A stretch of DNA of 64,000 nt from Candidatus Sungiibacteriota bacterium. GTDB taxonomy: Bacteria > Patescibacteriota > Minisyncoccia > Sungbacterales > SURF-37. How positions within the stretch are numbered: the first letter of the stretch is position 1; the number at the start of each line of letters is the position of its first letter. The notes under the pieces were generated by a model, which was not told the DNA's origin, ran no database searches, and saw only the letters and a program-made list of their open reading frames with translations. The position numbers and the translations under genes were made by a program. Shown here one piece after another: positions 3,449 to 50,569 of this stretch. The DNA is taken from the NCBI GenBank assembly GCA_016186145.1, contig JACPMF010000006.1, positions 1,906 through 65,905 on the forward strand. Direction: 5' to 3'.

Positions 3449-3588
3449 AAGCTCACGCGGACATATTCCAAAGACTCCGTCGCGGGCTTTTAACCAGAAA
3501 TACCGGTATTACGATGTGCGAGTTTGAAGACGGCCAATGGCGCATTCATACATGGAATGACCACGCGCATCTCGGATAAATCGATAAT

Positions 3589-3659
3589 TGGGGGATCGTC
3601 TAATGGTAGGACACTGCCCTTTGAAGGCAGGTATCGGGGTTCGAGTCCCTGTCCCCCAG
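3589..3659 (+). tRNA. tRNA-Gln (anticodon UUG)
   Basis: Full cloverleaf drawn by hand. Acceptor TGGGGGA/TCCCCCA, anticodon loop CTTTGAA, T-loop TTCGAGT. CCA is not encoded. Confidence 0.8.
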
Positions 3660-3730
3660 GATTAGAGGGAAGTATCGAGTGACCAGGACGGGTCGTAAAA
3701 GACCCCCCCTATGGCTGATGCTTTCCTTAG

Positions 3731-3803
3731 CTCGTCACCATCACGTCATACCGGCTGAGTGCCGTATCCAAAACGAAAGATCGCCTCCCAAGGCGGTTTT
3801 TCG
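3731..3803 (+). repeat. R1 repeat copy A (ctcgtcacca..gtcataccggctgagtgccgtat.caaaacgaaa plus terminator hairpin)
   Basis: Near-identical to 14911-14987. The hairpin CGCCT-CCCA-AGGCG is followed by a T-run. Confidence 0.8.
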
Positions 3804-3871
3804 TTAGAAATACCTTTAGTATACATATGTATACTTGACTTTTCTATTATAATAGATTATACTGCTTATAT

Positions 3872-6367
3872 ATGGCAATCAATAAAGCAGAATTTATTAC
3901 TGTGGCTGAAATGGCCAAAATGCTTGGGGTTACCCGAGCGGCAATAAACAAGCAAATTTCAGAGAAAAAGATCCCTGCTGAGAAGGTCGGGCGTAATTAC
4001 CTAATCCCCAAAACGGCCCTTCCGGCTGGGCTTGAGGAGCGTATTCGGACTGAGCAAAAGAAAGCCACCGATACGGTTATCAAGAAAAGCCATCATCACG
4101 ATCTCGATTTTGAGAAAGAACTGTGGGCGGCGGCAGACAAGCTTCGCGGCAATATTGATGTCTCCGAATACAAAAACATAGTCCTCGGACTCCTCTTCTT
4201 AAAATATATCTCTGACGCTTTTTACAAACGACGTGAAGAACTCGCGGGTTTTACTCGTGATTCGAAGAATGAGGATTTTTATGTGAAAGACGATAAGGCT
4301 CGCGCCCAAGTTCTTGAGACCAAAGATTTCTATAAGAGTGTTGGTGTGTTCTATGTACCAGAGAAATCTCGCTGGGAATATTTGCAGACAAAGACGATGC
4401 AGTCCGATATCGGGCAAGCGCTCGATAAGGCAATGGATCTTATCGAAGAGGACAACCGCGCCGAGCTTGAGGGGGTTCTCCCTAAAATTTATACTCGCAC
4501 AACCTTGGATCATGCTGTAATTGGCGAACTCGTAAATATATTTTCTCGCATTTCATTCAATCACGACTTTGACAGGGAGAAAGACATACTCGGCCGCATT
4601 TACGAATATTTCCTTGGTCAATTTGCTTCTTCTGAAGGCAAGCGTGGTGGTGAATTTTTTACTGCACGATCGATTGTTAATTTACTGGTAGAGATTCTTG
4701 AGCCATATGAAAATGCGCGGGTTCTTGATCCGGCCTGCGGAAGCGGCGGCATGTTTGTTTCTATGGGTGAATATCTGCGAAAACACGGGCAAGATCCATC
4801 GAAGCTTGCTGTCAATGGCCAAGAGAGTAACCAAACAACACTTCGTCTTGCAAAAATGAATCTCGCGATCCGTGGACTCTCTGGGAAAATTGAGCTTGGG
4901 AATAGTTATTACCAAGACAAGTTTCCCCACCTGCAAGCCGACTTCGTAATCGCCAATCCTCCGTTTAATGCAGAATGGGAACCGTCAAAACTTGCCGACA
5001 ACGATCCTCGCATGACACTAGGAGCCCCCCCAGGCAGTAACGCCAACTTTATGTGGATTCAACACTTCGCGCACCATTTAGCGCCAAATGGTCAGGCTGG
5101 GTTCGTTATGCCAAATGGAGCACTGGCAGTTTCTGGTAGAGAGGGTGATCTTCGTCAGAAATTGATCGAAGCGGATCTTGTCGACGCAATAATCACCTGC
5201 CCTTCAAAGCTTTTCTATAACGTCACTCTTCCAGTATCTCTCTGGTTCCTTTCGAAAAATAAATCCGGAGACCGTTTCCGTAGTCGCTCTGGCGAGATCC
5301 TATTTGTGGACGCTAGGGATACATTCGAGCAAATTTCTCGTAAGCAAGTTGTTTTCAACCCTACGCAAATCCAGAAAATTGCAAACACTGTTCGAGCATG
5401 GCGCGGAGAAAAGAGGTATGGCGAATACAAGGATGTCCCGGGTTTTTGTAAATCTGTTGATGTTAATAGAGTAAAAAAGAATCACTATATCTTGAGTCCA
5501 GAAAAATATGTTGATTCCGTTGTGATCCAGGGAGATGGGATATCATTCAAAAATGATCTTGAAAATACATCCAAGTTTTTAAAACAGCAGACAATAAAAT
5601 ATAAAGAGTTCGATCATAAAATATCCACCAGTCTAAATGAATTTTACCCGAGCTCTGATTGGAATAATATAAACTATTCATCGACAAGTGTTTTAGAAAG
5701 CCTAGCTTCTAAAATATTTGACGAGTGGTTTAATCGTTACCATATTCCTGGACGTAAAAAACTGAAGTTGGTTGAGCAGGATGATAAATTAATTCCGGAA
5801 GAATGGGGCGTAAAAAAGTTGGACGAAGTGGTGGATATTTCTATTGGACGAACTCCACCGAGGGAGCAGTATGAGTGGTTTTCTAGAAATGCAGAGGATA
5901 TAAAATGGATCTCCATAAAAGATCTCGGCACCAGTGGTGCATTTATACTTGACACCGAAGAGCGTCTAACAAGAGCAGCGGTTCAAAAATTTAATATTTC
6001 AATTATTCCAAAAAATACCGTTATCGTTAGTTTTAAACTCACGGTGGGACGTGTTGCGATTACGACGGAGAACATGTTGTCGAATGAGGCTATAGCGCAC
6101 CTGAAAACAAAAAAACAGCCACACATTCCATTCCAGTACCTCTATTTACTCATGAAAAAATATAATTATGCCTCTCTCGCTAGTACTTCTTCCATTGCAA
6201 ACGCCGTAAACTCAAAGACTATAAAAAATATTGAGATCGCAATTCCTGACCCTCAAACCCTGAGTCTTTTCGAGAAGATCATGACGCCTATCTTTGAAAA
6301 GATTTACGCGCTGCAGACAGAAGAAAGGGAGTTAAAAAAACTGAGGAATCAGCTATCGGTCAACTAA
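3872..6367 (+). CDS. hsdM: type I RM methyltransferase fused to a single-TRD specificity subunit, with an N-terminal HTH
   Basis: Excisionase-like HTH (AEMAKMLGVTRAAINKQI). HsdM N-domain, motif I LDPACGSGGMF and motif IV NPPFN. The C-terminal ~230 aa is an HsdS target-recognition domain. Confidence 0.85.
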   Translation: MAINKAEFITVAEMAKMLGVTRAAINKQISEKKIPAEKVGRNYLIPKTALPAGLEERIRTEQKKATDTVIKKSHHHDLDFEKELWAAADKLRGNIDVSEYKNIVLGLLFLKYISDAFYKRREELAGFTRDSKNEDFYVKDDKARAQVLETKDFYKSVGVFYVPEKSRWEYLQTKTMQSDIGQALDKAMDLIEEDNRAELEGVLPKIYTRTTLDHAVIGELVNIFSRISFNHDFDREKDILGRIYEYFLGQFASSEGKRGGEFFTARSIVNLLVEILEPYENARVLDPACGSGGMFVSMGEYLRKHGQDPSKLAVNGQESNQTTLRLAKMNLAIRGLSGKIELGNSYYQDKFPHLQADFVIANPPFNAEWEPSKLADNDPRMTLGAPPGSNANFMWIQHFAHHLAPNGQAGFVMPNGALAVSGREGDLRQKLIEADLVDAIITCPSKLFYNVTLPVSLWFLSKNKSGDRFRSRSGEILFVDARDTFEQISRKQVVFNPTQIQKIANTVRAWRGEKRYGEYKDVPGFCKSVDVNRVKKNHYILSPEKYVDSVVIQGDGISFKNDLENTSKFLKQQTIKYKEFDHKISTSLNEFYPSSDWNNINYSSTSVLESLASKIFDEWFNRYHIPGRKKLKLVEQDDKLIPEEWGVKKLDEVVDISIGRTPPREQYEWFSRNAEDIKWISIKDLGTSGAFILDTEERLTRAAVQKFNISIIPKNTVIVSFKLTVGRVAITTENMLSNEAIAHLKTKKQPHIPFQYLYLLMKKYNYASLASTSSIANAVNSKTIKNIEIAIPDPQTLSLFEKIMTPIFEKIYALQTEERELKKLRNQLSVN

Positions 6368-6371
6368 AATC

Positions 6372-9300
6372 ATGAACCCACTCAACGAAAATAATCTAAC
6401 AGAGCAATCACTCATTGAATGGCTTCAAGCTCAGGGTTATGAGTATGTTTATGGTCCAGCAATTGCTCCGGGACAACCTAGCGCAGAGCGTGAGGATTTT
6501 CGTGGTGTTGTACTTAAAAATCGTTTGCTTTCTGGTGTCCGTCGTTTCAATCCCCAGCTTCCAGCTGAACAAGCAGAACAAGTCGTGGATGATATCGCCG
6601 GATATCATAATGCTGACCTCGTTCTTGGCAACAAAGAAATGTTCACCCTCCTTACCGAGGGGGCGAAGAAGACGTGGCGAGAAAAGGGTGAGGAAAAGAC
6701 CGAAGTCGTGAAGTTGATTGACTTCACAAATGTGGACGCGAACGAATTCTTGATCGTCAACCAGTTTACAATCCAGGGTATCGAGAACGTTTGCCGCCTC
6801 GATGGCGTTGTTTTTGTAAACGGTCTTCCTCTTGGAGTCCTTGAACTCAAGAGTCCCGTACGTGAGGAAGCGACGATCGGTCAGGCGTACCGCGACATAG
6901 AATATTACAAAAGGGAAATACCGAGAATCTTCTTCTATAACCAAGTCCTTTGCTTATCTGACCTTACAGAAGCACGTCATGGAACGATATCTTCATCATG
7001 GGAGCGATATAGCGCGTGGAAAGGAATTGAATCAGAAACGGATGCACCTAAAGGAGCGGCGGAGCTTGAGGTTCTTGCTAGGGGTCTTTTTAACAAGGCG
7101 CGGCTTCTCGATGTAATTCAGAACTTTACGGTTTTTGAGGCCGACGGAGATGGTGACGCGGTGACGTACACAAAAAAATCTGCTTTGTACCATCAGTACT
7201 ACGGCGTAAATAAGACGATTCAAAGCACTGTGCATTCAGTGCTTGGAGAGCGGGAAAGAAAAATTGGTGTTTTCTGGCACACGCAGGGTTCGGGTAAGTC
7301 ACTCTCAATGGTTTTCTATGTGAATAAAACAAAGAGCATATCAGAGCTTAAAAGTCCCGCTTATGTATTTCTTAATGACCGCGAGGATCTCGACGACGCG
7401 CTATTTAAAACATTTAGTCGTACTGGGTATGGCACGCTCGCAAAACGCGCTTCGAGCATAAAAGATTTGAAAGATCGACTTTCCCACTTGGGAAGTGAAC
7501 TGATATTTACAACCATTCAGAAATTCCAAGAAGATCCTGACGCGAACGCCGTTCTCTCGGAAAGAGAAAATATTATTGTGCTTACTGATGAAGCACACCG
7601 CACGCAATACAGCATGCTTGCGGGTAATGTGCGACAGGCATTACCAAACGCGAGCTTTTTGGGCGTGACCGGAACTCCAATTTCACGGCATAATCGCAAC
7701 ACCATGCGTGTTTTTGGTGATGTAATAAGCGCATATAAGATTGGCCAGGCAGTAAAAGATAAAGCAACCGTCCCTATTTACTACGAGGGCCGTCTTGTTC
7801 CTCTCCATCTGGCTGATCAATTTGTTGATAGCAAACTCGACGAAATTCTTGGAGAAATTATCGTCGATGAAAAAGCAAAAGCCCGTAAAGAATGGGCCGT
7901 CCTTGAGGAGGTTGTAGGCGCGCCAAGCCGTATTGATCAAATATCAAAAGATATCGTTACTCATTTCAATAACCGTCCCATCGAGGGCAAAGCAATGGTA
8001 GTTACAATGAGTCGTCCTATCGCCGTCGCTATGTATCAAGCAATCAAAAAGATTTCCGGTACTCCAGAGTGCGCAGTGGTAATTTCCAAAATGGAGGACT
8101 TCCCGGGACAAATTCAAACTGAGCACGATGTGAAAAAACTCGAGAAGCGGTTTAAAAAGACGAATGACCCACTTCGTTTGGTTGTCGTCTGCGATATGTG
8201 GCTTACCGGATTTGATGTGCCGAGCATGCACACAATGTATCTCGATAAACCCCTTAAGAACCATGGGCTCATGCAAGCCATTGCTCGCGTGAACCGCGTC
8301 TACAAAGATAAGCCGGGTGGTTTAATTGTGGACTATATCGGTATTGCCGAACACTTAAAGAAAGCCTTGGCTATTTATGACTCTGATGTCCAAAAGGAAG
8401 CAATGATTCCTCTCGATGAAGTAATTAGTGAGATGAGAAAATTGCACGGAGAAATTTCTCGCTACTTTACGAATATCGACTTTTCTGGTTGGAGACAAAA
8501 GAAAGGCGTTGAACTGGTCAATCTCTTCCAGTCGGCAATGAATGAAGTTATCTCAGAGAATGGCCGGCTTTCTGATGATCGAAAAATGGCTTATATGGGT
8601 GGAGTTTCCAAACTTTCCCAGCTCCATGCCCTCGTCATGCCCGCAGAGGCGGCGATGAAGATTATAACCGATGTTCAATTCTTCCAGTCAATCCGCGAAG
8701 CAATCAACAAACAGACAGTGGTGCCGCATATTATCTTTCCCGAAGCAAAAGAGAGTGCCATCCGCAGCCTTATACAAGACGCGGTGCAAGCAGAAGGCGT
8801 AATTGACCTATTTACCAAAGAAGGCGAAGAGAAAAAAAGCATCTCCATCTTTGATAGTCGATTCGCAGAAGAAATAAAGAAGGTTAAATACCAAAATCTT
8901 GCCATTGATACGGTTCGCAAAATGCTTGATCAAGAAATAAAGGTACGCTCTCGTACAAACAAGGCGCGCTATGAAACGATGCTTACGCTTTTAACCGAAC
9001 TAATTGAGAAATACGAGAATAATGTTATTAGTTCGGCAGAGATCATTAAGCATCTACTCGAGATTGCCGACGAGATAAAGAAACTGGACGAAGAGAGCGA
9101 GGAACTCGGACTTTCCGAAGAGGAGATCGTCTTTTATGACACTCTTGCAGCCGATCCAGATCTCAAAGAAGCAGGGATTGATATCAAAGAATTCGTAAAG
9201 GAACTTACAAAACGTATTCGGCGCGACTTGGCTATTGATTGGACCAATAACGAAACTATCAAAGCGCGCATTCGCCAAAATGTTCGGTTGCTTTTGCTCC

Positions 9301-9401
9301 AGAAGGGCTTCGTCGAGCAGATGCAAACAGAACGACTAATAGAGTCGATATATCAGGAGACGGTGAGGGTGTACCGGGAATACTTACCAGTACCAGCGTA
9401 A
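6372..9401 (+). CDS. hsdR: type I restriction enzyme R subunit
   Basis: Walker A TQGSGKS and DEAH box LTDEAH. Length 1009 aa. Starts 5 nt after hsdM-S. Confidence 0.9.
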   Translation: MNPLNENNLTEQSLIEWLQAQGYEYVYGPAIAPGQPSAEREDFRGVVLKNRLLSGVRRFNPQLPAEQAEQVVDDIAGYHNADLVLGNKEMFTLLTEGAKKTWREKGEEKTEVVKLIDFTNVDANEFLIVNQFTIQGIENVCRLDGVVFVNGLPLGVLELKSPVREEATIGQAYRDIEYYKREIPRIFFYNQVLCLSDLTEARHGTISSSWERYSAWKGIESETDAPKGAAELEVLARGLFNKARLLDVIQNFTVFEADGDGDAVTYTKKSALYHQYYGVNKTIQSTVHSVLGERERKIGVFWHTQGSGKSLSMVFYVNKTKSISELKSPAYVFLNDREDLDDALFKTFSRTGYGTLAKRASSIKDLKDRLSHLGSELIFTTIQKFQEDPDANAVLSERENIIVLTDEAHRTQYSMLAGNVRQALPNASFLGVTGTPISRHNRNTMRVFGDVISAYKIGQAVKDKATVPIYYEGRLVPLHLADQFVDSKLDEILGEIIVDEKAKARKEWAVLEEVVGAPSRIDQISKDIVTHFNNRPIEGKAMVVTMSRPIAVAMYQAIKKISGTPECAVVISKMEDFPGQIQTEHDVKKLEKRFKKTNDPLRLVVVCDMWLTGFDVPSMHTMYLDKPLKNHGLMQAIARVNRVYKDKPGGLIVDYIGIAEHLKKALAIYDSDVQKEAMIPLDEVISEMRKLHGEISRYFTNIDFSGWRQKKGVELVNLFQSAMNEVISENGRLSDDRKMAYMGGVSKLSQLHALVMPAEAAMKIITDVQFFQSIREAINKQTVVPHIIFPEAKESAIRSLIQDAVQAEGVIDLFTKEGEEKKSISIFDSRFAEEIKKVKYQNLAIDTVRKMLDQEIKVRSRTNKARYETMLTLLTELIEKYENNVISSAEIIKHLLEIADEIKKLDEESEELGLSEEEIVFYDTLAADPDLKEAGIDIKEFVKELTKRIRRDLAIDWTNNETIKARIRQNVRLLLLQKGFVEQMQTERLIESIYQETVRVYREYLPVPA

Positions 9402-9405
9402 TTTT

Positions 9406-11961
9406 ATGGACAGTCGTATACCATTTGTAAAAGAAGTCGCCAAGGTCATCATTGAACGCCATGAAAAAGAGGGCGGCTCCTTTATTTTTGGTATATCCGG
9501 CAAGTGGGGTGAGGGTAAAACAACTTTTCTGGACGAATTGAAAAAAGTATTGGAAAAAGATAATTCATCATTCAAAGTTGTGGATATAAATCCATGGAAA
9601 TTTTCCGTCGACAGAATTTCTTTTTTGAGAAACTTCCTGCGAACTTTGCACGGAAAATGTGATTTGGGGGGTGACGATGATTTAAAACAGTTAGATGTTG
9701 ATACGTCAAAAAATGCAATCGATTGGGGACGATTTTTAAAATTTGTCGTATTGTTTGGAGTCATTTGTTGGGCTTTTACTTATGCCCCTCTTTTTAATTT
9801 TATAATTGGCCTTCCTGCGCAATGGCAATTTTTTCTAACCGTTTTGTTGCTCCCAATTGTCTTAGCAGCCGTTCAAGGCGTAGTAACTGTCCAAAAGACA
9901 GATCACGCTATAGTTACTTTAGACAAATTTGATGATCTACTTAAAAAAATATTAAAGAATTTTGAGATGGCGGGAAAGAAGATCATTGTTTTTGTCGATG
10001 ATTTGGACCGTGTAACTCCCGAAATGGCGAGAGATGTTCTCGATAATCTGCGGACGTTCTTTGATAAAAAAGAAATGACCTTCGTCGTAACAGGAGACCA
10101 TACAGTACTCGAAGGACATCTCGGGAGAAGTCTTCTTCCCGACGAAGAATCTTCTGCTGCTCAGCTAGAAGAAGGACGTAGATTTATGAAGAAAATCTTT
10201 AATGTTTATTGGCGACTTCCACTCCCAATCAAAAAGGGGATCCAAGACTTTATTGGAGGTGAGTTCAAAAAGAGGGACTCAGGGTTGAAAGAAGTGTTCT
10301 CTGAAGAGAGCCAGAAAATTACCTTCGCTACATATCTGGAGAAATATTTTGAAAGTAATTTCAGGCAAATAATCAGATTTTTAGACACTGTTCTTTTTAA
10401 TTTTCAAATCATAAAACAAAAAGCTGAAGGCGAAGACACACAAGCTCCTTACTTCAAGGATATGCTGACCAATCCGCTGCTTGTGATACGTATTCTTATA
10501 ATCCAAGAGTTGTGCGCCCCTCTTTTCGACAAAATGGTTAGAGATGTTTCCATTTTGCAGGGGCTTGAATACGCAGTCGAGAAAAAGGATTCTTCTAAAA
10601 CAACTGAGATCCTAGGACAAGGCAAGGATACGCTTTCTCCTAGTCAACGAGCTTTTATAGAAAAGTTTATTTATGAGGAACCACGTTTTTACAAAGGATC
10701 TCGCCTACAGGTCTTAAACCTTCAGCCCTATCTATCGTTAGCTGCTGACGTAAGCTTCGGCGATCAGCGTGGTCCGTCCAGCGAAGACTTTATTACGGCA
10801 CTTAACGGAGGAGATCCCAAGGGAGTAAAAAATGATCTCCTTTCAATGGGAGATGCAAAAGCAGAGGAGGGCGCAACTGCTTTGGTAACCCAGCTACCCC
10901 CCATGATTGATGTTACTCAAAAATTGGGCGCAATAAAAACACTTCTTGTCGCCTTGTCTGATTCACCCACCGAATTAACCATACATAAAATATTTGCTGA
11001 TCAATTAAGCAAGCTTGATTACCATTTTGTAAATAATGCTGCGTCTAATCTAAAAATGGAAGTTTTAAACCTTCTCTTTGGTTGGCTCGACCTGATTTCA
11101 GACCCCACTGTGATAAGTGCGTTTGAAAGTAAATTTACTCTGAAGGATATTACTGAATTTAATGCTGTAAATATTGAAGGAGCAGGTTCTTTCAAAAGTT
11201 TGGTTTTGGCGAAATGGATTAAGGAGTATTACTCTAAGCAAAAACCCGATGCCATAAACGCTATGGTTGCACACTTTCCAAAACTAAAAATTGAGAAAGT
11301 GAGGGAGCAAATGGATACTATTGATAAAATCTTGGTTACTGACCTTATTGGAGACTCCAACGCACTGTTAAGGGAGAACCGCTTTGCTTTGTTGAGAAAC
11401 TATACAACTAAAGGGGCTGAGATGCTCAAAGAAAATGTTCTGAACCAAGTTTCTGGTTTTGATCAAGGAATTACTGCGTGGGCTATCGCAAAAGCAAATG
11501 AGGAAAAAGCTCTGTGGACGATAGGTGAGCTTGAGACAAAAATCCTAGAAAAAATTGAGATTTCGGCGGACTTCAATGCCCTTAATCAGGGATTAAGGTT
11601 TGCTTTAACCAATAAAGTTGGATCCCCAGAGATGATTTGGCCCAAGCTTCTTCCTAAACACCAGAAAAGTATTCTTGAAAATTTACCAGCAATTATTGAT
11701 GACGCTTCACTTCAACCGATTTCACCACCACAAGCTTATGCAAATCAACTTATGGATGCAGTAGTAGCAAAAATTAAGACCATTCCGGAGGCTGACCAAG
11801 CCCGCTGGCTTAGTTATATAGTTAAAGGTAAATGGCCTTGGATTAATCTGGCTAAATACCCTATTACCAGTAAGTTTAGAAATATGAAGAAGTCTAAAAA
11901 CGAAGATCTTAAGAAGAATTTTGCAATTACTGAAGAAAGCTGGGTAGAGAAAAATGATTGA
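9406..11961 (+). CDS. KAP-family P-loop NTPase
   Basis: Walker A GKWGEGKTT and Walker B IIVFVDDLDR. Two TM helices inserted between them are the KAP hallmark. Starts 4 nt after hsdR. Confidence 0.8.
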   Translation: MDSRIPFVKEVAKVIIERHEKEGGSFIFGISGKWGEGKTTFLDELKKVLEKDNSSFKVVDINPWKFSVDRISFLRNFLRTLHGKCDLGGDDDLKQLDVDTSKNAIDWGRFLKFVVLFGVICWAFTYAPLFNFIIGLPAQWQFFLTVLLLPIVLAAVQGVVTVQKTDHAIVTLDKFDDLLKKILKNFEMAGKKIIVFVDDLDRVTPEMARDVLDNLRTFFDKKEMTFVVTGDHTVLEGHLGRSLLPDEESSAAQLEEGRRFMKKIFNVYWRLPLPIKKGIQDFIGGEFKKRDSGLKEVFSEESQKITFATYLEKYFESNFRQIIRFLDTVLFNFQIIKQKAEGEDTQAPYFKDMLTNPLLVIRILIIQELCAPLFDKMVRDVSILQGLEYAVEKKDSSKTTEILGQGKDTLSPSQRAFIEKFIYEEPRFYKGSRLQVLNLQPYLSLAADVSFGDQRGPSSEDFITALNGGDPKGVKNDLLSMGDAKAEEGATALVTQLPPMIDVTQKLGAIKTLLVALSDSPTELTIHKIFADQLSKLDYHFVNNAASNLKMEVLNLLFGWLDLISDPTVISAFESKFTLKDITEFNAVNIEGAGSFKSLVLAKWIKEYYSKQKPDAINAMVAHFPKLKIEKVREQMDTIDKILVTDLIGDSNALLRENRFALLRNYTTKGAEMLKENVLNQVSGFDQGITAWAIAKANEEKALWTIGELETKILEKIEISADFNALNQGLRFALTNKVGSPEMIWPKLLPKHQKSILENLPAIIDDASLQPISPPQAYANQLMDAVVAKIKTIPEADQARWLSYIVKGKWPWINLAKYPITSKFRNMKKSKNEDLKKNFAITEESWVEKND

Positions 11962-12084
11962 GTGGTCTATATCATAGCTGGAGGTTAATGAGCGATGGGG
12001 TAAGCTATCGACTAGGCATATTAAGCGGCCGGTTCCATGGTTCGTTACGAAAGAGAAGAGGATTTAATTAAACTGGTTACGTAG

Positions 12085-13488
12085 ATGTTTACGAGTGAGA
12101 ATTTTAAAAAAGTTGCTGATCTTGTCTATAAAGATTACTACAAATATCTCTTTAAGCACGCCGTATCTTTATTGCGACGTTCGAGACTTCCGTATCTTAG
12201 AAGGAATAATCTTTGGATAGGTGGAATTCAGCAAAACATGGTTAAATATAGACTCGGATTTGAAGAAACGGTCAGAAAGGGTAAGTCGATGGTCCCAAAA
12301 GACGACAAGGAGAAAAAAGCATTAGATATTGCACTGAGATCAAATAAAGAATTCCTCCGTGTCTTGAAGGATATTGGTGATGGTATTGCCTGGAGAAATC
12401 TAGACTATAGACGCTCATTAATTCGACTTATGTCGGAACATGCACCGACTGGCGATATTGGTCCGGATGCAGAGCGACTTATTTTGCTTTTAGGCGCTAG
12501 GAAAAAAGTAAGCGACCGAGTGATAATCAACGATTTGACCCACTGTCTAAAGATCGCCGATTTAACAGTTATCACATCAAAAAGTAGAATCTTTATTTAT
12601 GAAGTAAAGGCGCGAAAAGATAAGACCGAGATTATAGGTATATCAGAAATTTCAAGACGTATCCAAAAATATGGACAGGCAAGAAAGCAGGCTATTTCGC
12701 ACTGGATAGTTCAAGACGCTTTTATAAATAAAAAAGTTAAGACCCCCAAACTTGAAATAAGAATCGTAGATTTAGACTTTGTTTTTCACACTCACATCAG
12801 TAAGGTAAATCAATTGATTAAAGAGTCGGATAACAAGAACTTCTCCAACGCATTATTGGAAGGGGGATACCACATAGAAATTTGTGCGTTGGACAAGGTT
12901 TTTGAGAAATCAGGTCAGGAAAAAATTAAGGAACAATTGAATAAACTCAAGCCCTTTAATCCCCATAAAGAAGGGTGGTCCGATATGACACTTTGCATCT
13001 CAAACTATGATACCTTTTATTCGAGCATCAACGACAGATTTACGAATTTTACGCCGTATTCGGTTCTACCATTATCTGCTCGAAACTGCGTTAGGTTAAC
13101 GATGGGGCAACTTTATATTCGTATCTGCTTCGATTTTATGAAGTTAAAACAGAAATTCGAAGAAGCTGGATGGAGTGTCGAGGTTAAAGACTGGACATCA
13201 TGGGAATCTCAAAACAAGGAAACCATCAGAAAAATTAGGGAGGGTAAGGGTGGTTTCTTAGAGCATTCAGTTAATGAGTATATATTCAAAATTTCTAAAC
13301 AAGGCGAGAACGGTAGGTATACCCAGGATTTTCCGGTAAATCTAGTGATCATTATGCTCTCGGCTTTTTATACAACGGACTATCTCATTGGTATGGCCGA
13401 GGCTGTTTATCAAGATGCAAAATTAAACAGCCGAGGTGGTGGTTTATCAACGTTTAATTGTCTATATGAACGATGTATTTTAAGATGA
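12085..13488 (+). CDS. hypothetical protein with a PD-(D/E)XK-like nuclease motif
   Basis: 467 aa with low GC. LKIADLTVITSKSRIFIYEVKARKD fits the D...ExK core. Confidence 0.5.
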   Translation: MFTSENFKKVADLVYKDYYKYLFKHAVSLLRRSRLPYLRRNNLWIGGIQQNMVKYRLGFEETVRKGKSMVPKDDKEKKALDIALRSNKEFLRVLKDIGDGIAWRNLDYRRSLIRLMSEHAPTGDIGPDAERLILLLGARKKVSDRVIINDLTHCLKIADLTVITSKSRIFIYEVKARKDKTEIIGISEISRRIQKYGQARKQAISHWIVQDAFINKKVKTPKLEIRIVDLDFVFHTHISKVNQLIKESDNKNFSNALLEGGYHIEICALDKVFEKSGQEKIKEQLNKLKPFNPHKEGWSDMTLCISNYDTFYSSINDRFTNFTPYSVLPLSARNCVRLTMGQLYIRICFDFMKLKQKFEEAGWSVEVKDWTSWESQNKETIRKIREGKGGFLEHSVNEYIFKISKQGENGRYTQDFPVNLVIIMLSAFYTTDYLIGMAEAVYQDAKLNSRGGGLSTFNCLYERCILR

Positions 13489-13581
13489 TCCCTGCTCGCG
13501 GCGAACGCTGGTCCTATTCAGAATCAGAGGATTCGACAGCCGGCTGGCGTAGAGCATTGAACTGTAATTGAATAAAATCAT

Positions 13582-14235
13582 ATGCTAGACGCTGAAACAT
13601 TCAAAAAGTTTACAAGGCAAGCCAACCTTTCTCATCAGCAGTTTTGTGTTTGGTTCGCATTTAACAATGAGTATGCCAAACACCAGGATCGTTGGAACAA
13701 ATTTTATCCCGAAAGTTACTTTGCACCGGAAGATTTTGATAAGACGAAAGGATGTAAGTATAAAAACTTCTGGGGTGTAACTTTGGCCTCAACGCAGCAC
13801 GGCTGGATTCTGGGAATAGCAAGACTCTTTGATCCCGCATTTCATCCTTTTGATAAAAAACAGGAAAAACCTCGAATCTCTTTCGACTATATTCTTAGAA
13901 GACTTAATGATCAAAACTTGTCAGATAAACTGAGGCAAGAGTTAGATTGGCACAAAAATGTAATTGAATCTGTAAGAAAACATAGGGATAATGTTCTTGC
14001 GCATAACGATGCGAGCTTTGATTATAAAAAAATTGGGCCAGGAATTGAAAATCTTTTTGAATGGTTAGAAGATGTTATTTCAAGAATAAAAAAAACAGAG
14101 CCACACCTTAGTAGTTGTGGTGTAGTGAACGTTAAGTATCACGAGAAATTATCCCAATGTGGCGTAGATGAGGTTTTTGAAACTTTACTGCTTGGGGAAA
14201 AGCATGAGGTAGATGAGTCGAGGAGAACCTCATAA
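13582..14235 (+). CDS. hypothetical HEPN-like (Abi-type) protein
   Basis: 217 aa. RKHRDNVLAH fits the Rx4-6H HEPN motif (AbiD/F-like R..RN..AH). Confidence 0.4.
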   Translation: MLDAETFKKFTRQANLSHQQFCVWFAFNNEYAKHQDRWNKFYPESYFAPEDFDKTKGCKYKNFWGVTLASTQHGWILGIARLFDPAFHPFDKKQEKPRISFDYILRRLNDQNLSDKLRQELDWHKNVIESVRKHRDNVLAHNDASFDYKKIGPGIENLFEWLEDVISRIKKTEPHLSSCGVVNVKYHEKLSQCGVDEVFETLLLGEKHEVDESRRTS

Positions 14236-14250
14236 AAGCGATGATCATAT

Positions 14251-14655
14251 ATGTTTCCACTGGAAACTAAATCTTACGAAGCAAAATCGCTAGCCGACTC
14301 TTTGCTTGGCAATCCGTATCTCCAAGTTGAGTCCGCAGAACTCCCCGAGAGCGGAGGAGTTTATTTGTTCAGAAATGATGCAAATGAAATAGTATATATA
14401 GGCAAGGCGCGAAATCTAAAGAGAAGAATCCGCATTGACCACTTAAGCCAGGAACTGGGCGATACTATGAGTGCTTTTAGAAGAAGCATTAATAAGGTGC
14501 TTGGAATTCCTTTCGGCCATGAGATGAAAAGCTGGATATGCAGCAATTGCAAAATTTCTTTCATCCAGATAGATGATCCAGATATGCGCAGTTTGGTGGA
14601 GGCGCTTTTAATCGCTGCCGTCAGATCGAAGTCATTGCTCAATCATGATAGTTAG
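14251..14655 (+). CDS. GIY-YIG nuclease domain protein
   Basis: GVYLFRNDANEIVYIGKARNLKRRI. Lies 16 nt downstream of the HEPN-like gene. Confidence 0.7.
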   Translation: MFPLETKSYEAKSLADSLLGNPYLQVESAELPESGGVYLFRNDANEIVYIGKARNLKRRIRIDHLSQELGDTMSAFRRSINKVLGIPFGHEMKSWICSNCKISFIQIDDPDMRSLVEALLIAAVRSKSLLNHDS

Positions 14656-14674
14656 TGTTCACGGCATATGAAAT

Positions 14675-14709
14675 GAGACACACATAGTAGTGTCTCATTT
14701 GTCTCATTT
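14675..14709 (+). terminator. rho-independent terminator
   Basis: Hairpin GAGACAC-8 nt-GTGTCTC followed by ATTTGTCTCATTT. Confidence 0.6.
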
Positions 14710-14910
14710 AGGTTAAAATGACCTAGACCGAGACCCTTCACTATAGAGAAGGGAAGGATCTCCAAAGAAGCTCTAAGGTATCCCACTCGGGTTGGTTCTA
14801 GACTGGAGTGGCCAGCCACCTTGCGACCCCTACCGGGACGCCTGCCTGCCGGCAGGCAGGGGTCAGGCGTCGTAACGCTTGACTCGTCAATGTACGAAAT
14901 TTGGTCGCAA

Positions 14911-14987
14911 GACTCGTCACCATTTATGGCATACCGGCTGAGTGCCGTATTCAAGAACGAAAAACCACCAATGTCGGTGGTTTTTCG
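14911..14987 (+). repeat. R1 repeat copy B with terminator hairpin
   Basis: gactcgtcaccat..ggcataccggctgagtgccgtattcaagaacgaaa, then CCACC-AATGTC-GGTGG and a T-run. Confidence 0.8.
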
Positions 14988-15056
14988 TTTTGTACAAAAT
15001 AAACATGTTTTGATTCCGATATTTATTTTTCTGAGCTTATAAATTAGATTTAGTCT

Positions 15057-18061: not shown

Positions 18062-18314
18062 CGAAGTTAAAATAACATGATTTTGTGTTTAAGGTAAGTG
18101 CTTTCGCCTAACCAGCTATTTTCAACAGTTCTTGGTCCAACTCTTTTCCTAGTAGACGCGGCGGGACGCCTTTCGGTAAATGTGACACTACCAAGAACCT
18201 CTCCCGTGTCATGTTTGTAACATTTGCATGGGGCTACGGTTCGAATCCAAGAACCCCCCGTTTTTCGGATTCACACCACTAAGGTCTAAAACAAAGGGCC
18301 ACGCATGAACAAGA

Positions 18315-18342
18315 TAGACATCAAACAGCCTCTTTTTATAGT
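18315..18342. repeat. 28-bp direct repeat, copy 1 (tagacatcaaacagcctctttttatagt)
   Basis: Identical to 20477-20504. Confidence 0.9.
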
Positions 18343-18459: not shown

Positions 18460-18699
18460 ATGGAAAACAAGTCCAAAACGATCATTATCGCGACAGTCGT
18501 GGTTCTTGTAGTAGCGGGGGCCGGCTTTTGGTATTGGTCAAAGAGCAAGCAGGCCCCGTCTTCAAAAGAAGCTTCTTCGTTAGGGGGCGAGATCTTTGAT
18601 AAAACGCAAAATCAACTTCAGGGCCAGGTTCCGGATACTAATCCCTTCAAAGACCAGAGGAATCCTTTAGATTTAATTTATCAAAACCCTTTTGAGTAA
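18460..18699 (+). CDS. small membrane protein
   Basis: 79 aa with one TM helix. Confidence 0.4.
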   Translation: MENKSKTIIIATVVVLVVAGAGFWYWSKSKQAPSSKEASSLGGEIFDKTQNQLQGQVPDTNPFKDQRNPLDLIYQNPFE

Positions 18700-18705
18700 T
18701 TAAAA

Positions 18706-20382
18706 ATGAAATTATTTTATTTCCCAAAATTCGTAATGCTCTCTTTCGCAATCATTGCGCTTTCGTTTTTTGCGGTCTTTTTCGTTACCTTTGCTCTGAA
18801 TGAAGTATCGGCACAAATTAGCAATATTACATACCCAGTAGCAGAGTTGGGGAGTTGTGTCGGCCAGCAAGAATGTGAAGCTTACTGCGGTGTGCCAAGC
18901 AATTATTCAAAATGCGCCGCATTTGCCCAAAAAAATAATTTAGCAATAGAAATACCCGACGATAAAAAAGCCGTTTTTGCGGCGATGCAAAAAGGAGAGA
19001 GTCCGGGCGGATGCAAGGATGAAGCATCTTGCCGCAATTATTGCGAAGATATTGACCACATAGAGGAATGCGTCAATTTTGTGGAAAAATTTAACTTGGC
19101 CAGTTCTGACGAGTTAAAGGAAATACGCCAGATGGCCGATGTTAAAAAAGCGGGTGTGGCGTTTCCGGGAAACTGCAAAACCAAAGAAAACTGTTTAAAG
19201 TATTGTGATAATTCCGATAACGCGGTTGTATGTATGGAATTTGCCCTGAAAGCCGGATTTATACCGAAAGCAGATACCGAGGCGGTTAGTAAAATTCTTC
19301 CTTATCTGAAGAGCGGCGGGAAATTACCCGGTGGGTGCACGACAAGGGAATCGTGCGACACATACTGTAATGACGACGCTCATGTTACTGAATGCATTAA
19401 CTTTGCCGAAAAAACCGGATTTGTATCAAAAGAGGATGCCGACATAGTGAGGAAGACCGGCGGTAAGAGTCCGGGAAATTGTAAATCGAAAGAGGCATGC
19501 GACAGTTACTGTAAGAGTGAAACGCATATTGATGAATGCGTGGACTTTGCGGTAAAAGCCGGTCTTATCTCAAAAGAAGACGCAGAAATGGCCAAAAGAT
19601 TCAAAATTACTTCCGGCCCCGGCGGATGCAAGAGCAAAGCCGATTGTGAAGCCTTCTGTGTCGTAAACCAGGATACTTGTTTCCAATTTGCCAAGGACCA
19701 TGGAATGCTTAGCGAAGAAGATCTCAAGAACATTGAGGAACAGAAAAAGTTCCTGGAATCGCTTGGTAAGGCCTCTCCGGAGTGGTTTGCCTGCATGGAG
19801 AAAGAGCTCGGTTCACCCTTTTTTGAACGATTTAAGGCTGGAAAATTAACACAAACAGAAGCCAAATCTCCAGCCCTGGAAAAAGCGCAGAGAAAATGCG
19901 GGGGCGAGATGGCCCAGGAAAAAGAGGCCGCCTGTTTGGCACTTTCCTGCTCCGAGTTTGAGTCCTGTCTAAAAGCTCTGCAGTCAAGCGGCGGAGACCA
20001 GGACGGAGAACAACAAGAAGAAGGCGCTCCGAATCCGGCAGTTAATGCGAAGGCCCAATCCTGCCAACAAGAAAAAATTAACGCGTGTTTGGCAAAATCG
20101 TGCAGTGAATTTGACGCTTGTGTAAATGCTCTTCAGCAAGGTGGTGGAAAACAGGGCGGACAACAGCAGCAGGGAGAGTCGGATCCGAAGCTAAAAGCAA
20201 AAATCCAGGCCTGTACTGATGAAAAAATTAACGCGTGTATTGCCAAACCATGCGGTGAATTTCAAGCCTGTCTTAATTCTTTAGGCGCTGGAGGTGAAGG
20301 CGGAGCACAACAGGGCGCACCGAATCCGGCTGTTCAGTCCAAGCTTATGACATGCTTTCCTCCGCCTCCTTCAGGTGAATGA
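18706..20382 (+). CDS. secreted Cys-rich tandem-repeat protein
   Basis: Signal/TM at the N-terminus. Six ~50 aa repeats of PGGCKxKExCxxYCxxxxHxxECxxFAxKxGxxSKED. Three C-terminal repeats of CxxEKINAC(L/I)AKxCxEFxACxNALQQGG. Confidence 0.7.
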   Translation: MKLFYFPKFVMLSFAIIALSFFAVFFVTFALNEVSAQISNITYPVAELGSCVGQQECEAYCGVPSNYSKCAAFAQKNNLAIEIPDDKKAVFAAMQKGESPGGCKDEASCRNYCEDIDHIEECVNFVEKFNLASSDELKEIRQMADVKKAGVAFPGNCKTKENCLKYCDNSDNAVVCMEFALKAGFIPKADTEAVSKILPYLKSGGKLPGGCTTRESCDTYCNDDAHVTECINFAEKTGFVSKEDADIVRKTGGKSPGNCKSKEACDSYCKSETHIDECVDFAVKAGLISKEDAEMAKRFKITSGPGGCKSKADCEAFCVVNQDTCFQFAKDHGMLSEEDLKNIEEQKKFLESLGKASPEWFACMEKELGSPFFERFKAGKLTQTEAKSPALEKAQRKCGGEMAQEKEAACLALSCSEFESCLKALQSSGGDQDGEQQEEGAPNPAVNAKAQSCQQEKINACLAKSCSEFDACVNALQQGGGKQGGQQQQGESDPKLKAKIQACTDEKINACIAKPCGEFQACLNSLGAGGEGGAQQGAPNPAVQSKLMTCFPPPPSGE

Positions 20383-20476: not shown

Positions 20477-20504
20477 TAGACATCAAACAGCCTCTTTTTA
20501 TAGT
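20477..20504. repeat. 28-bp direct repeat, copy 2; here it forms part of a hairpin GTAGACA...TGTCTAC
   Basis: Identical to 18315-18342. Confidence 0.9.
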
Positions 20505-20646
20505 GTCTACTTTGTCTACTGAGGCCCCGCCTGCGCTAAAGCTACGGACGGGCAGGTCGGATTTTGTTCGGGGGGGACAGCACGCGTATGCTAAAGTCAG
20601 GTGACTGAGGTGCCCGCCCTTTGGGCGGCATCGCATACGACTCCTT

Positions 20647-20788
20647 TCCACCATGTCATACCGGCTGATGGTTCGACAAGCTCACCATAAAGCGCCGCTT
20701 GTCCTGTTTATGCCGAGCCGTGTCGAGGGAGGCGGAGTCGAAGGATATTCAAGAACGAAAAGTCCGCTGTAAAGTCAGCGACTTTTCG
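20647..20788 (+). repeat. R1 repeat copy C, split by a 77-bp insert (20669-20745) with inverted ends
   Basis: ccaccatgtcataccggctga | insert tggTTCGACaag..gaGTCGAAgga | tattcaagaacgaaaag, then hairpin CGCTG-TAAAGT-CAGCG and a T-run. Confidence 0.7.
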
Positions 20789-20965
20789 TCTGGACAGGGG
20801 AGCGCGTAAAATTTTCTCGAAGAAAATTATCAGTGCAAAAAGACTTATTTCATGATAAGCTTTTTATATTGTTTGCTTGCGATTTACCTTGTTAGAAATT
20901 TTGGATCAGCGGAATACGGTAAATAGCAGTGTTGAATTATATTATAGATGAACTTCTAGCGGAAT

Positions 20966-50023: not shown

Positions 50024-50569
50024 TCAGACGAACATCACAAGGGCATCAATGACGATGAAAACGAGAAAGAACACTGCGTGAGTGATCTTCTCGTCTCCGT
50101 TGGGCTTCGTCACCTCATACCTCGTGACTTTCCCTTCTGACGTCAGTTCCACAGGGATCTTCCTCGGGATGCAGTTTCTGCTGTACGACCATGTGAAGAG
50201 CCCCGTACCAATGGCAAGTAAGGGCAGGCCGATCGCGAGCTGAAGAAGATCGACGCCCATCACCTTCCAGGCGATCATGACCATCACGAACATACCGACT
50301 CCGGTCTTGCCGAAGTTCGCCGCGTGATCCGTCACGGCCTTGAGCCCTTCGTTGACGGCGGTGCCGACTTCGCGGCCGAGACCGACCCAGCTGCCGACCT
50401 TCTCCACCTGTTGCTTCTGCTCGATCTTCTGGAGAAGATCCGGCGGCAAGTCGGACTTCTTCACCACGATCCGGTCGTCGGCCTGTTGGGTGTCATCGGC
50501 CACGGCCGATGTGACATTGAAGCCCGTGACTAGTGCGAAAACTATGGCGGTGACGAACAATCTCTTCAT
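50024..50569 (-). CDS. hypothetical membrane protein, GC-rich
   Basis: 181 aa with a signal peptide and TM helices. GC is visibly higher than the surrounding DNA. Confidence 0.55.
   Translation of the reverse strand: MKRLFVTAIVFALVTGFNVTSAVADDTQQADDRIVVKKSDLPPDLLQKIEQKQQVEKVGSWVGLGREVGTAVNEGLKAVTDHAANFGKTGVGMFVMVMIAWKVMGVDLLQLAIGLPLLAIGTGLFTWSYSRNCIPRKIPVELTSEGKVTRYEVTKPNGDEKITHAVFFLVFIVIDALVMFV

Follow-up and report, generated by a model that had tools for sequence, protein, structure and literature searches.

A defence-gene cassette behind tRNA-Gln in a Candidatus Sungbacteria genome and its flanking repeat module, a candidate attachment site associated with large serine recombinases

Introduction

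How does a block of defence genes with no recombinase of its own come to lie behind a tRNA gene in a member of the Patescibacteria? The question is raised by a 64,000-nt stretch of a Candidatus Sungbacteria (Patescibacteria, or candidate phyla radiation, CPR) metagenome-assembled genome (MAG), contig JACPMF010000006.1, which we call the window. In it, a tRNA-Gln gene is followed by an island of six long genes, among them those of a type I restriction-modification (R-M) system, and the island is bracketed by direct repeats. An initial annotation took this block for a low-GC defence island ending at position 14990, regarded its repeats as consistent with the att-like scars of an integrative element, and suggested that the element may have decayed or may be mobilised in trans. 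The Patescibacteria, with their very small genomes, seldom encode CRISPR-Cas (PMC6509639). Little is known of the ways in which they acquire phage defences and pass them on to one another.

Here, we compare the locus with loci from other genomes and metagenomes (denoted by L numbers). With moderate confidence, we read the block as a horizontally acquired defence-gene cassette without a recombinase of its own, and the repeats around it as attachment (att) junctions of large serine recombinase (LSR) elements. The evidence lies in the anatomy and conservation of the repeat, in the LSR genes found beside it in other genomes, and in a gene of the cassette that has an orthologue within one of these LSR elements.

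Results

The island is bracketed by copies of a structured module

The six long open reading frames (ORFs) in 3872-14655 are all on the plus strand, as initially annotated (Table 1). The island adjoins the tRNA gene: the first copy of the repeat, together with the variable hairpin P1 that precedes it, begins at 3661, and the first island ORF begins at 3872. Upstream of tRNA-Gln are dnaX and then a His-phosphatase gene, in the same order as in relatives (synteny). A global alignment of the two repeats, ~3730-3805 and 14913-14992, gives 61 identical positions over ~77 aligned nt (~79%) with two indels, so that the direct repeats are real but were too strongly described as near-identical. Within them lies an exact 21-mer, CATACCGGCTGAGTGCCGTAT, which begins at 3747 and 14930 and has no other occurrence in the window when as many as three mismatches are allowed (0 expected in shuffles), while the 60 nt outside the repeat on either side have background identity.

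The repeat is not an anonymous scar, and the initial description of it as att-like can be refined accordingly. It is a module of ~95 nt composed of a linker, the nearly invariant 21-nt bulged hairpin CATACCGGCTGAGTGCCGTAT (hereafter the core), and a bidirectional terminator, with a variable hairpin before it. In copy 1, the core occupies 3747-3767 and the terminator ~3773-3805, and P1, which is similar to that of L023, folds together with the terminator well below shuffled sequences (z = -5.1). The terminator of each copy is an A-tract, a hairpin and a T-tract, and the stems of the two copies differ by compensatory changes (CGCC/GGCG versus CCACC/GGTGG). Rfam, at both gathering and permissive thresholds, has no family for the repeat or for its long form described below; only tRNAs pass, and the best sub-threshold matches (RNAI and psRNA14) are driven by the terminator.

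Copy 2 is preceded by a leader that makes it a long form. The leader contains a pseudo-tRNA 3' end (GGTTCTAGACTGGAGTGGCCAG at 14794-14815) and a hairpin region (14826-14910) homologous to the hairpin that follows tRNA-Gln in L009 (blastn, 85% over 105 nt), and it folds well below shuffles (z = -5.5). In alignments, the same leader blocks precede the module in L006, L010/L027 (twice), L014 and L025; when six long forms were folded to a consensus, the only helices supported were those of the core and the terminator. Upstream of copy 2 stand repeats that can be written AAATGAGACAC...GTGTCTCATTTGTCTCATTT, with one inverted and one direct copy. This motif also occurs before the long-form modules of L010/L027 and L025, as variants in L006, L014 and copy 3 of the window, and next to a divergent gene in the LSR-bearing viral contig L071; it is probably an operator in the element's regulatory region.

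The module is tied to tRNA-Gln in several candidate lineages

We scanned one genome per species (185,579 species genomes) for the exact 21-mer and scanned metagenomes separately. It occurs in 15 of the species genomes, all MAGs of Saccharibacteria, Paceibacterota, Sung-, Taylor- and Staskawiczbacteria, with one stretch in each, and in 19 metagenome contigs. A tRNA-Gln gene lies on the same strand at most 150 nt upstream of the core in 10 of the 15 loci from MAGs and in 8 of the 19 from metagenomes, and 2.3-4.6 kb upstream in L011, L016 and L027/L033; a terminator always follows the core. Because it is linked to tRNA-Gln in other genomes and always followed by a terminator, we regard the repeat as a locus-specific module rather than a dispersed one. 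The window agrees with this, as all of its copies are in the tRNA-Gln locus, and the repeats are thus not spread over unrelated sites.

To find diverged copies, we built a covariance model, R1, from an alignment of 31 copies. The alignment has an invariant core (by selection of the sample), a semi-conserved linker, and a terminator stem with abundant covariation, including double changes in 11 of 18 predicted pairs. Over 36 distinct copies, core pair 7-17 is GC in 32, TA in three and TG in one, and the other six pairs are invariant except for one mismatch. In the window, R1 finds no further full copy beyond the two that bracket the island, only an interrupted copy at 20.6 kb and terminator-only matches at 29.8 kb. 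Scans of viral contigs with degenerate patterns gave one true locus, L055, and one weak variant, L056. A 23-nt exact match to the core in a Klebsiella phage (ATACCGGCTGAGTGCCGTATTCA; L057 2085-2107, also L058) was set aside, having no tRNA, terminator or LSR; the region is annotated as 'hypothetical protein | antitermination protein Q', and an identity of 23 nt is not expected by chance.

Large serine recombinase genes converge on the module

In at least ten distinct loci, ORF inspection and tblastn place a convergent gene downstream of the module, usually within ~3 kb. Its product, 415-450 aa in length, is an LSR with the Resolvase, Recombinase and Zn_ribbon_recom domains (Pfam), a set present in L001, L002/L016, L004, L006, L011, L019, L022, L024, L044, L045 and L055 and absent from the window. 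The distance from the core to the downstream LSR is 40-60 nt in L004, L016/L002, L019 and L024 (in L025 a C-terminal fragment has that position) and 0.7-2.5 kb in L001, L011, L022 and L026, the copy in L026 being a fragment. In about half of the LSR loci, the gene thus reaches close to the module, its stop codon overlapping the terminator or lying 40-60 nt away from the core. L006 is arranged differently, with the LSR at the far left of a 7.6-kb island and a long-form module at the other end. A module close beside the recombinase gene, as expected of an attachment site, is thus seen in L004, L016, L019, L024 and L055 and not in the window. The LSR family is large, with at least 7,980 proteins at E < 1e-80. 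In L013/L031, from Taylorbacteria, the gene that converges on the module terminator (7076-7998, minus strand) looks from its translation (...IPIGNLTSQLFANVYMNEFD...) like a reverse transcriptase, not an LSR.

As an independent test, loci were fetched by LSR homology only and then inspected for their layout. L044 and L045-L048 have the order dnaX-(His-phosphatase)-tRNA-Gln-module-(one gene)-LSR, with R1 scores of 71-76 bits (70-76 when L055 is included), and the IMG/VR contig L055 has tRNA-Gln-module-LSR with the LSR stop overlapping the terminator. The cores of these loci are CATACCUGCUGAGUGCAGUAU or near variants of it, with a compensatory change from G7-C17 to U7-A17 in the stem.

The cargo points in the same direction. 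In L055, the LSR, a helix-turn-helix (HTH) protein and a ParB-methylase are encoded on one strand, and a VRR-NUC protein, a 353-aa protein and a fusion of HTH, HsdM and HsdS on the other; this fusion is 77% identical in amino acids and 78% in nucleotides to the first gene of the window island (3872-6367) and has the same orientation. The LSR element L043 carries a 62% identical homologue of the 467-aa protein of the island. The L006 element has an LSR, a large terminase, a methylase, a LexA-like S24 repressor and a Thoeris pair; at 4130-6431, ThsB (TIR) and ThsA (Macro) adjoin the long-form module, so that defence genes are at the cargo end there as in the window.

Since the module follows tRNA-Gln with a convergent LSR downstream in other Patescibacteria, we read it as an att junction, and more precisely as the likely attL/attR-like junction of a large family of LSR-driven, phage-like integrative elements. 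The initial proposal of an integrative element, decayed or mobilised in trans, gains support from the module lying upstream of a convergent LSR gene in many loci and from the orthologue of the island HsdM-S fusion in an LSR element. The window has no recombinase, as was also stated initially: no serine or tyrosine recombinase is found among its ORFs of at least 150 aa (Pfam Resolvase, Recombinase, Phage_integrase), and tblastn of the window with four LSRs was negative. The associations described above refine that proposal in one respect, in that the expected recombinase would be of the serine type rather than the tyrosine type. The island, which we call cassette 1, is without the LSR/HTH/methylase backbone of the related elements and looks like the cargo end of such an element. 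It would be either a deletion derivative or a unit that could move only with recombinase supplied in trans.

Relatives differ behind tRNA-Gln

Two relatives, L036 and L038, whose DnaX is 67-68% identical to that of the window, keep the order GtrA-dnaX-tRNA-Gln but then have different genes, with no homologue of an island gene and no module after tRNA-Gln. Because GtrA-dnaX-tRNA-Gln is kept while the module is lacking and the genes that follow are others, what lies behind tRNA-Gln varies, and the module is no housekeeping feature. In L035, which is the closest relative (DnaX 82%), the contig breaks 35 nt after the tRNA.

Composition agrees in part. The block has a GC content of 0.418 against 0.465 in the rest of the window, and the lower GC reported initially holds for 9406-14655, where 0.391 is ~2 standard deviations of 1-kb windows (0.031) from the rest, but not for the two R-M genes, whose 0.427 and 0.450 are inside the range of host genes.

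The inserted DNA probably extends beyond 15 kb as a tandem array

The end initially given for the island, 14990, is probably not that of the inserted DNA: a third, interrupted copy of the repeat is present at 20632-20799. Copy 3 is a long form. Its leader begins with the promoter- and operator-like sequence GTAGACA...TGTCTACTTTGTCTAC, followed by a degenerate tRNA 3' end and then by a hairpin, GCGTATGCTAAAGTCAGGTGACTGAGG, of the type found after tRNA-Gln in L035. The core is split into CATACCGGCTGA at 20657-20668, an insert of ~76 nt, and ATATTCAAGAACG with a terminator at 20745-20792, the break falling exactly after CTGA, at the centre of the dyad. The terminator resembles that of L009. Part of the insert (TGGTTCGACAAGCTCACCATAAAGCGCCGCTTGTCC...) is similar to L027 2243-2270 (TTCGAACATTAGCGCCGCTCGT), a stretch that likewise comes after the hairpin of a module. 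The insert may represent either a small insertion or a hybrid junction formed with another element.

From the downstream copy 3, the two genes between copies 2 and 3 that lie on the opposite strand (cassette 2 in Table 1) probably belong to the inserted array; their 298-aa and 698-aa products have no match in Pfam, NCBIfam or the fetched loci, and the GC content of the 698-aa gene is 0.41. After cassette 2 there is only a decayed junction, at 18.1-18.46 kb, where the remnant of a tRNA 3' end suggests an older junction. A fourth, decayed module copy at 18.35-18.43 kb was considered and rejected, as R1 gives it no support and only the tRNA remnant and a promoter-like repeat are present there. 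That repeat is a perfect 28-nt direct repeat, TAGACATCAAACAGCCTCTTTTTATAGT, at 18315-18342 and 20477-20504, around the genes for the 79-aa and 558-aa proteins of cassette 3, and it matches the promoter consensus TAGACA-16-TATAGT. A homologue of the 79-aa protein is encoded in L023, ~1.1 kb after its module. We conclude that 3.7-20.8 kb is probably an array of about three cassettes, of which the island would be the first.

The same architecture is seen in L027 (identical to L010 and L033), which has two toxin-antitoxin (TA)/Fic cassettes (Fic/SWIM and HicB/Panacea), each closing with a long-form module. These two long forms are 86-94% identical from -250 to the core, agree at 20 of 21 positions within it, are ~63% identical over the terminator, and have only background identity beyond. 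Five recombinase-less cassettes thus precede a module (three in the window, two in L027), four of them ending in a long form.

A proposed mechanism and the alternatives to it

How could such an array arise? An element with its own long-form module, operator and promoter region first, would recombine with the module behind tRNA-Gln, the crossover most likely falling inside the 21-nt hairpin or at its 3' edge. A full module would be left on each side of the insert, and repeated events would build tandem arrays such as the ~three cassettes at 3.7-20.8 kb. A crossover in or at the core is suggested by its dyad symmetry, its position relative to the LSR stop codon, the break in copy 3 and the point at which homology ends in L027. 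We infer, too, that an LSR acts on the module and that the cassette can still be mobilised; what the comparisons show directly is the anatomy and conservation of the module, its adjacency to LSR genes, the orthologous cargo in an LSR element and the absence of a recombinase from the window.

Several observations weigh against this reading. The core owes part of its invariance to sampling, because 31 of the 36 distinct copies were found by the exact 21-mer search, and the adjacency of LSR and module is only correlative. The complete LSR elements L044 and L045 each have a single module in 21 kb, and a search of their far ends gave neither a further copy nor a half-core. For 20 more homologues of the LSR, found on viral contigs (43-71% identity), there is neither a module nor a tRNA-Gln in the vicinity, so that the association is limited to part of the LSR family or to the integrated state. 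No excised or true empty site was seen among L035, L036 and L038. The att sites of LSRs normally share few base pairs, and a core of at least 21 nt with similar flanks is unusual; the window copies share 21 exact nt and ~79% over ~77 nt. Moreover, each of the three copies in the window is a mosaic as regards hairpin, linker and terminator, with parts resembling L009, L023 and L035, and simple attB/attP bookkeeping fails. The pseudo-tRNA 3' ends before the module in long forms, and the L035-type hairpin in copy 3, fit a crossover at the tRNA 3' end better.

These last points belong to an alternative that we regard as unlikely: classical integration into the 3' end of tRNA-Gln (T-arm/acceptor), with the modules as passengers that mark the events and the hairpin playing no part in the crossover. 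The element would bring a replacement tRNA 3' end and a module by its recombinase, pushing the resident remnant and module to the far side. Such an arrangement would account for the pseudo-tRNA 3' ends (GGTTCTAGAC..G.CCAG) that precede the long forms, for the genuine-looking tRNA-Gln 3' remnants directly before the module in L018, L021 and L032, for the outermost window copy with its L035-type hairpin after a degenerate tRNA 3' end, and for the remnant at 18238-18268. It would also explain tRNA 3' duplications just before the module, a perfect one of 52 nt in L008 (the 3' two-thirds of tRNA-Gln, 47 nt apart, reverse complement ~6770-6960) and one of 18 nt in L005, which have the appearance of att scars left at this locus by classical insertion into a tRNA end. 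However, the pseudo-tRNA ends of the long forms resemble one another rather than the host tRNA and cannot pair with the 5' strand of the host acceptor; the L027 long forms are ~90% identical through the core and diverge only after it; copy 3 is broken within the core; and it is a nearly invariant dyad-symmetric sequence, the core, and not a tRNA end, that lies by the LSR gene. Both kinds of event may occur at the locus, by different recombinases. Truncated 5' pseudo-copies of tRNA-Gln just upstream of the intact gene in L027 (1925-1981), L022 and L024 are further evidence of repeated rearrangement there.

The module could instead be primarily a structured RNA of the host with a function in the cell, a 3' trailer or small RNA transcribed along with tRNA-Gln up to the terminator, near which elements insert and of which the island copies are captured duplicates. 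The repeats would in that case be paralogous genes for an RNA and not sites of recombination. Its constant position and strand relative to tRNA-Gln with no promoter between, the covarying core pair, the compensatory changes in the type-b P1 stem around a conserved 19-nt loop (read from the sequences), the folding energies well below shuffles and the promoter-like sequence ahead of the long forms would all be natural for an RNA. Double changes in 11 of 18 terminator pairs would be too, but covariation is expected of any terminator, and no consensus structure of the long form extends beyond core and terminator. We consider this rather improbable: no Rfam family matches, the module is missing behind tRNA-Gln of L036 and L038 and is therefore not a housekeeping RNA, the exact core is found in only 15 of 185,579 species genomes, and the close link to the LSR stop codon is left unexplained. 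It is also compatible with the preferred reading, as an RNA gene can be an attB site as well. Lastly, nothing at the locus need be mobile if it is a variable defence locus grown by local gene gain, with the repeats as duplicated terminator regions; the lack of a recombinase in the window, the host-like GC content of the R-M genes and the large share of terminator in the repeat would fit. This is very improbable and already largely refuted by the cross-genome data, as a 21-nt core that is not terminator is conserved across several candidate lineages and tied to LSR genes, a cargo orthologue lies inside an LSR element, the operator repeats recur on LSR-bearing contigs, and L027 has the same array architecture.

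Table 1. Coordinates of the features at the tRNA-Gln locus of the window
Feature	Position	Strand	Evidence and remarks
tRNA-Gln (anticodon UUG, ttg)	3588-3660	+	ARAGORN, Rfam; anchor of the insertion hotspot
P1, variable hairpin of module copy 1	3661-3728	+	Abuts the tRNA 3' end; loop has GTGACCAGGAC
Module copy 1 (left R1)	3722-3814	+	Covariance model R1, 78.4 bits; linker CTCGTCACC
Promoter-like site TTGACT-17-TATACT	3835-3863	+	Before first island gene; consensus scan, consensus match only
HTH (excisionase-type), HsdM_N, N6_Mtase and single-TRD (target recognition domain; half) HsdS fusion, 831 aa	3872-6367	+	Pfam, PADLOC, NCBIfam
HsdR, full-length type I restriction subunit	6372-9401	+	TIGR00348, 575 bits; PADLOC REase_I, 817 bits; Pfam
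KAP-family P-loop NTPase	9406-11961	+	Pfam KAP_NTPase, 2e-32; PADLOC PifA 7e-22 and QatA 7e-16, both partial
467-aa protein, invariant D159...E173-x-K175	12085-13488	+	No family match (Pfam, PADLOC, NCBIfam)
HEPN-domain protein, AbiU2 type	13582-14235	+	Pfam PF18734, 1.5e-7, 31.5 bits, just above the cut-off of 26.8
Small GIY-YIG nuclease-domain protein	14251-14655	+	Pfam PF20815, PF01541; NCBIfam UvrC/GIY-YIG region matches
Operator-like repeats AAATGAGACAC-N8-GTGTCTCATTT-GTCTCATTT	14671-14709	+	One inverted plus one direct copy
Long-form leader of module copy 2	14715-14904	+	Conserved GACCGAGACCC at 14726-14736
Module copy 2 (right R1)	14905-14998	+	R1, 81.0 bits; linker, core 14930-14950, bidirectional terminator 14956-14992
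Probable cassette 2: two ORFs, 298 aa (signal-peptide-like N-terminus) and 698 aa	15057-18061	-	Lies between copies 2 and 3
tRNA 3'-end remnant GGTTCGAATCCAAGAACCCCCC	18238-18268	+	Read from sequence; in the 18.1-18.46 kb spacer
Probable cassette 3: 79-aa membrane protein (18460-18699) and 558-aa protein	18460-20382	+	
Module copy 3, long form, interrupted core	20477-20799	+	R1 match 20632-20799, 27.4 bits, E = 2e-4

Cargo genes of cassette 1

The first two genes are a complete type I R-M system, with HsdM_N, N6_Mtase and Methylase_S in one ORF and a co-oriented HsdR adjacent, so that M, S and R functions stand together. The first ORF is a type I methyltransferase and specificity subunit with M and half-S fused, and a half-S with one TRD implies a dimer and a symmetric target. 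Its N-terminal HTH (3872-4030) belongs to the excisionase family TIGR01764 (42 bits). In L036, a separate HTH_17 gene and a Fic gene directly follow tRNA-Gln.

The KAP protein is PifA/QatA-like in its N-terminal 330 aa, and its C-terminal 500 aa are without assignment. The PifA match covers only profile positions 25-258 of 720, the N-terminal NTPase region; the QatA match reaches 56 bits against a cut-off of 600, and the Qat partners (QatB-D) are not present. The 467-aa protein has a family of only ten members in homologue searches, in all of which D159, E173 and K175 are invariant and lie in a predicted beta-beta segment; it is possibly a PD-(D/E)XK nuclease on the strength of this motif. An AlphaFold2 model from the 10-sequence alignment has a mean predicted confidence (pLDDT) of 57, and below 50 across the putative nuclease core, and Foldseek against PDB returned nothing below E = 0.07. 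Homologues of the protein sit in other mobile or defence contexts, including the LSR element L043. We also considered the KAP NTPase and the 467-aa protein as conserved partners and rejected this, as a KAP gene was present in none of the three distinct homologue neighbourhoods examined.

Searches with Pfam, PADLOC and NCBIfam bear out most of the initial description of the cargo, that is, the type I R-M system, the KAP NTPase, the AbiU2-type HEPN protein and the GIY-YIG protein, while for the PD-(D/E)XK-like protein the evidence is the three invariant residues only. The cargo had also been called defensive throughout, which can be upheld for only three or four of the six: a defensive role is established for the R-M system and plausible for the KAP and HEPN proteins.

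Far from the island, an ORF at 50024-50569 on the minus strand encodes a 181-aa predicted membrane protein with no Pfam match. It is a compositional outlier, with a GC content of 0.566 and a third-position GC content (GC3) of 0.77, compared to ~0.47 and ~0.48 in the other genes outside the inserted array.

Discussion

The evidence points to a single fixed hotspot behind tRNA-Gln in Patescibacteria, recognisable by a short sequence whose conservation exceeds that of the tRNA and linked to a family of recombinases that numbers thousands in metagenomes. If the link between module and LSR is functional, accessory and defence DNA could be located in these genomes by a simple rule, the recombinase and its site would be a candidate pair for the genetic manipulation of organisms in which this is difficult, and the locus would exemplify how a serine recombinase can cause cassettes to accumulate. 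In a bolder version of this idea, which we consider unlikely, the module would serve as a dedicated, structured landing pad at which a very abundant LSR assembles and exchanges multi-gene defence and TA cassettes, recombinase-less ones included. In function, the locus would then resemble an integron or an SCC as a platform for cassettes, with a serine recombinase as its basis and tiny genomes as its setting, and the module might also act as a trailer RNA in regulation or in the choice of site. In a full-text literature search that did not cover every journal, we found no description of the module behind tRNA-Gln, of its tie to the LSR family, or of the tandem recombinase-less cassettes.

Other features of the locus are ordinary: tRNA islands, integrase-less derivatives and defence cargo are all known. 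The R-M system has the full-length HsdR, HsdM_N, N6_Mtase and HsdS TRD in adjacent co-oriented genes that are typical of type I systems, but differs in that M and S are fused in a protein of 831 aa with a single-TRD half-S and an N-terminal excisionase-type HTH. The island as a whole resembles tRNA-linked genomic and defence islands in its adjacency to a tRNA gene, flanking repeats, defence or TA cargo, integrase-less decay and, over its distal half, low GC content. Classical tRNA islands, however, have tyrosine integrases and repeats that are the tRNA 3' end itself, whereas here the associated recombinase is of the serine type and the repeat is a separate conserved module 70-150 nt beyond the tRNA, with duplications of the tRNA end in addition in L005 and L008.

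Chromosomal integrons offer a second comparison. They are alike in their arrays of recombinase-less defence and TA cassettes (as in L027 and window cassette 1), in the structured imperfect palindrome with a bulged base, reminiscent of attC, that closes four of the five cassettes, and, in the related loci, in a recombinase at the end of the array. They differ in several ways: the window has no IntI tyrosine recombinase and no attI, and the recombinase of the related loci is an LSR; the cassettes have their own promoters and are multi-gene units of up to 11 kb, cassette 2 is on the opposite strand, and the arrays have two or three units. In the bulged hairpin of the core, one pair covaries.

A third comparison is with the staphylococcal cassette chromosome (SCC) elements, including SCCmec, composite islands and ccr-less pseudo-SCC. 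In these, an LSR inserts cargo at a fixed site, the 3' end of a conserved gene; the inserts are bracketed by direct repeats of the site and accumulate in tandem, and some units are recombinase-less and depend on recombinase in trans. By analogy, the LSR-linked, repeat-bracketed, tandem and recombinase-less cassettes described here would be of the same general design. They differ from SCC in their host, Patescibacteria, and in their anchor, the trailer of tRNA-Gln instead of rlmH/orfX; in having one LSR of ~430 aa rather than a CcrA/B pair or CcrC; in a repeated site that is a ~95-nt hairpin-plus-terminator module; and in the phage-like backbones of the related elements, which carry terminase, ParB-methylase, a LexA-like repressor and a diversity-generating retroelement (DGR).

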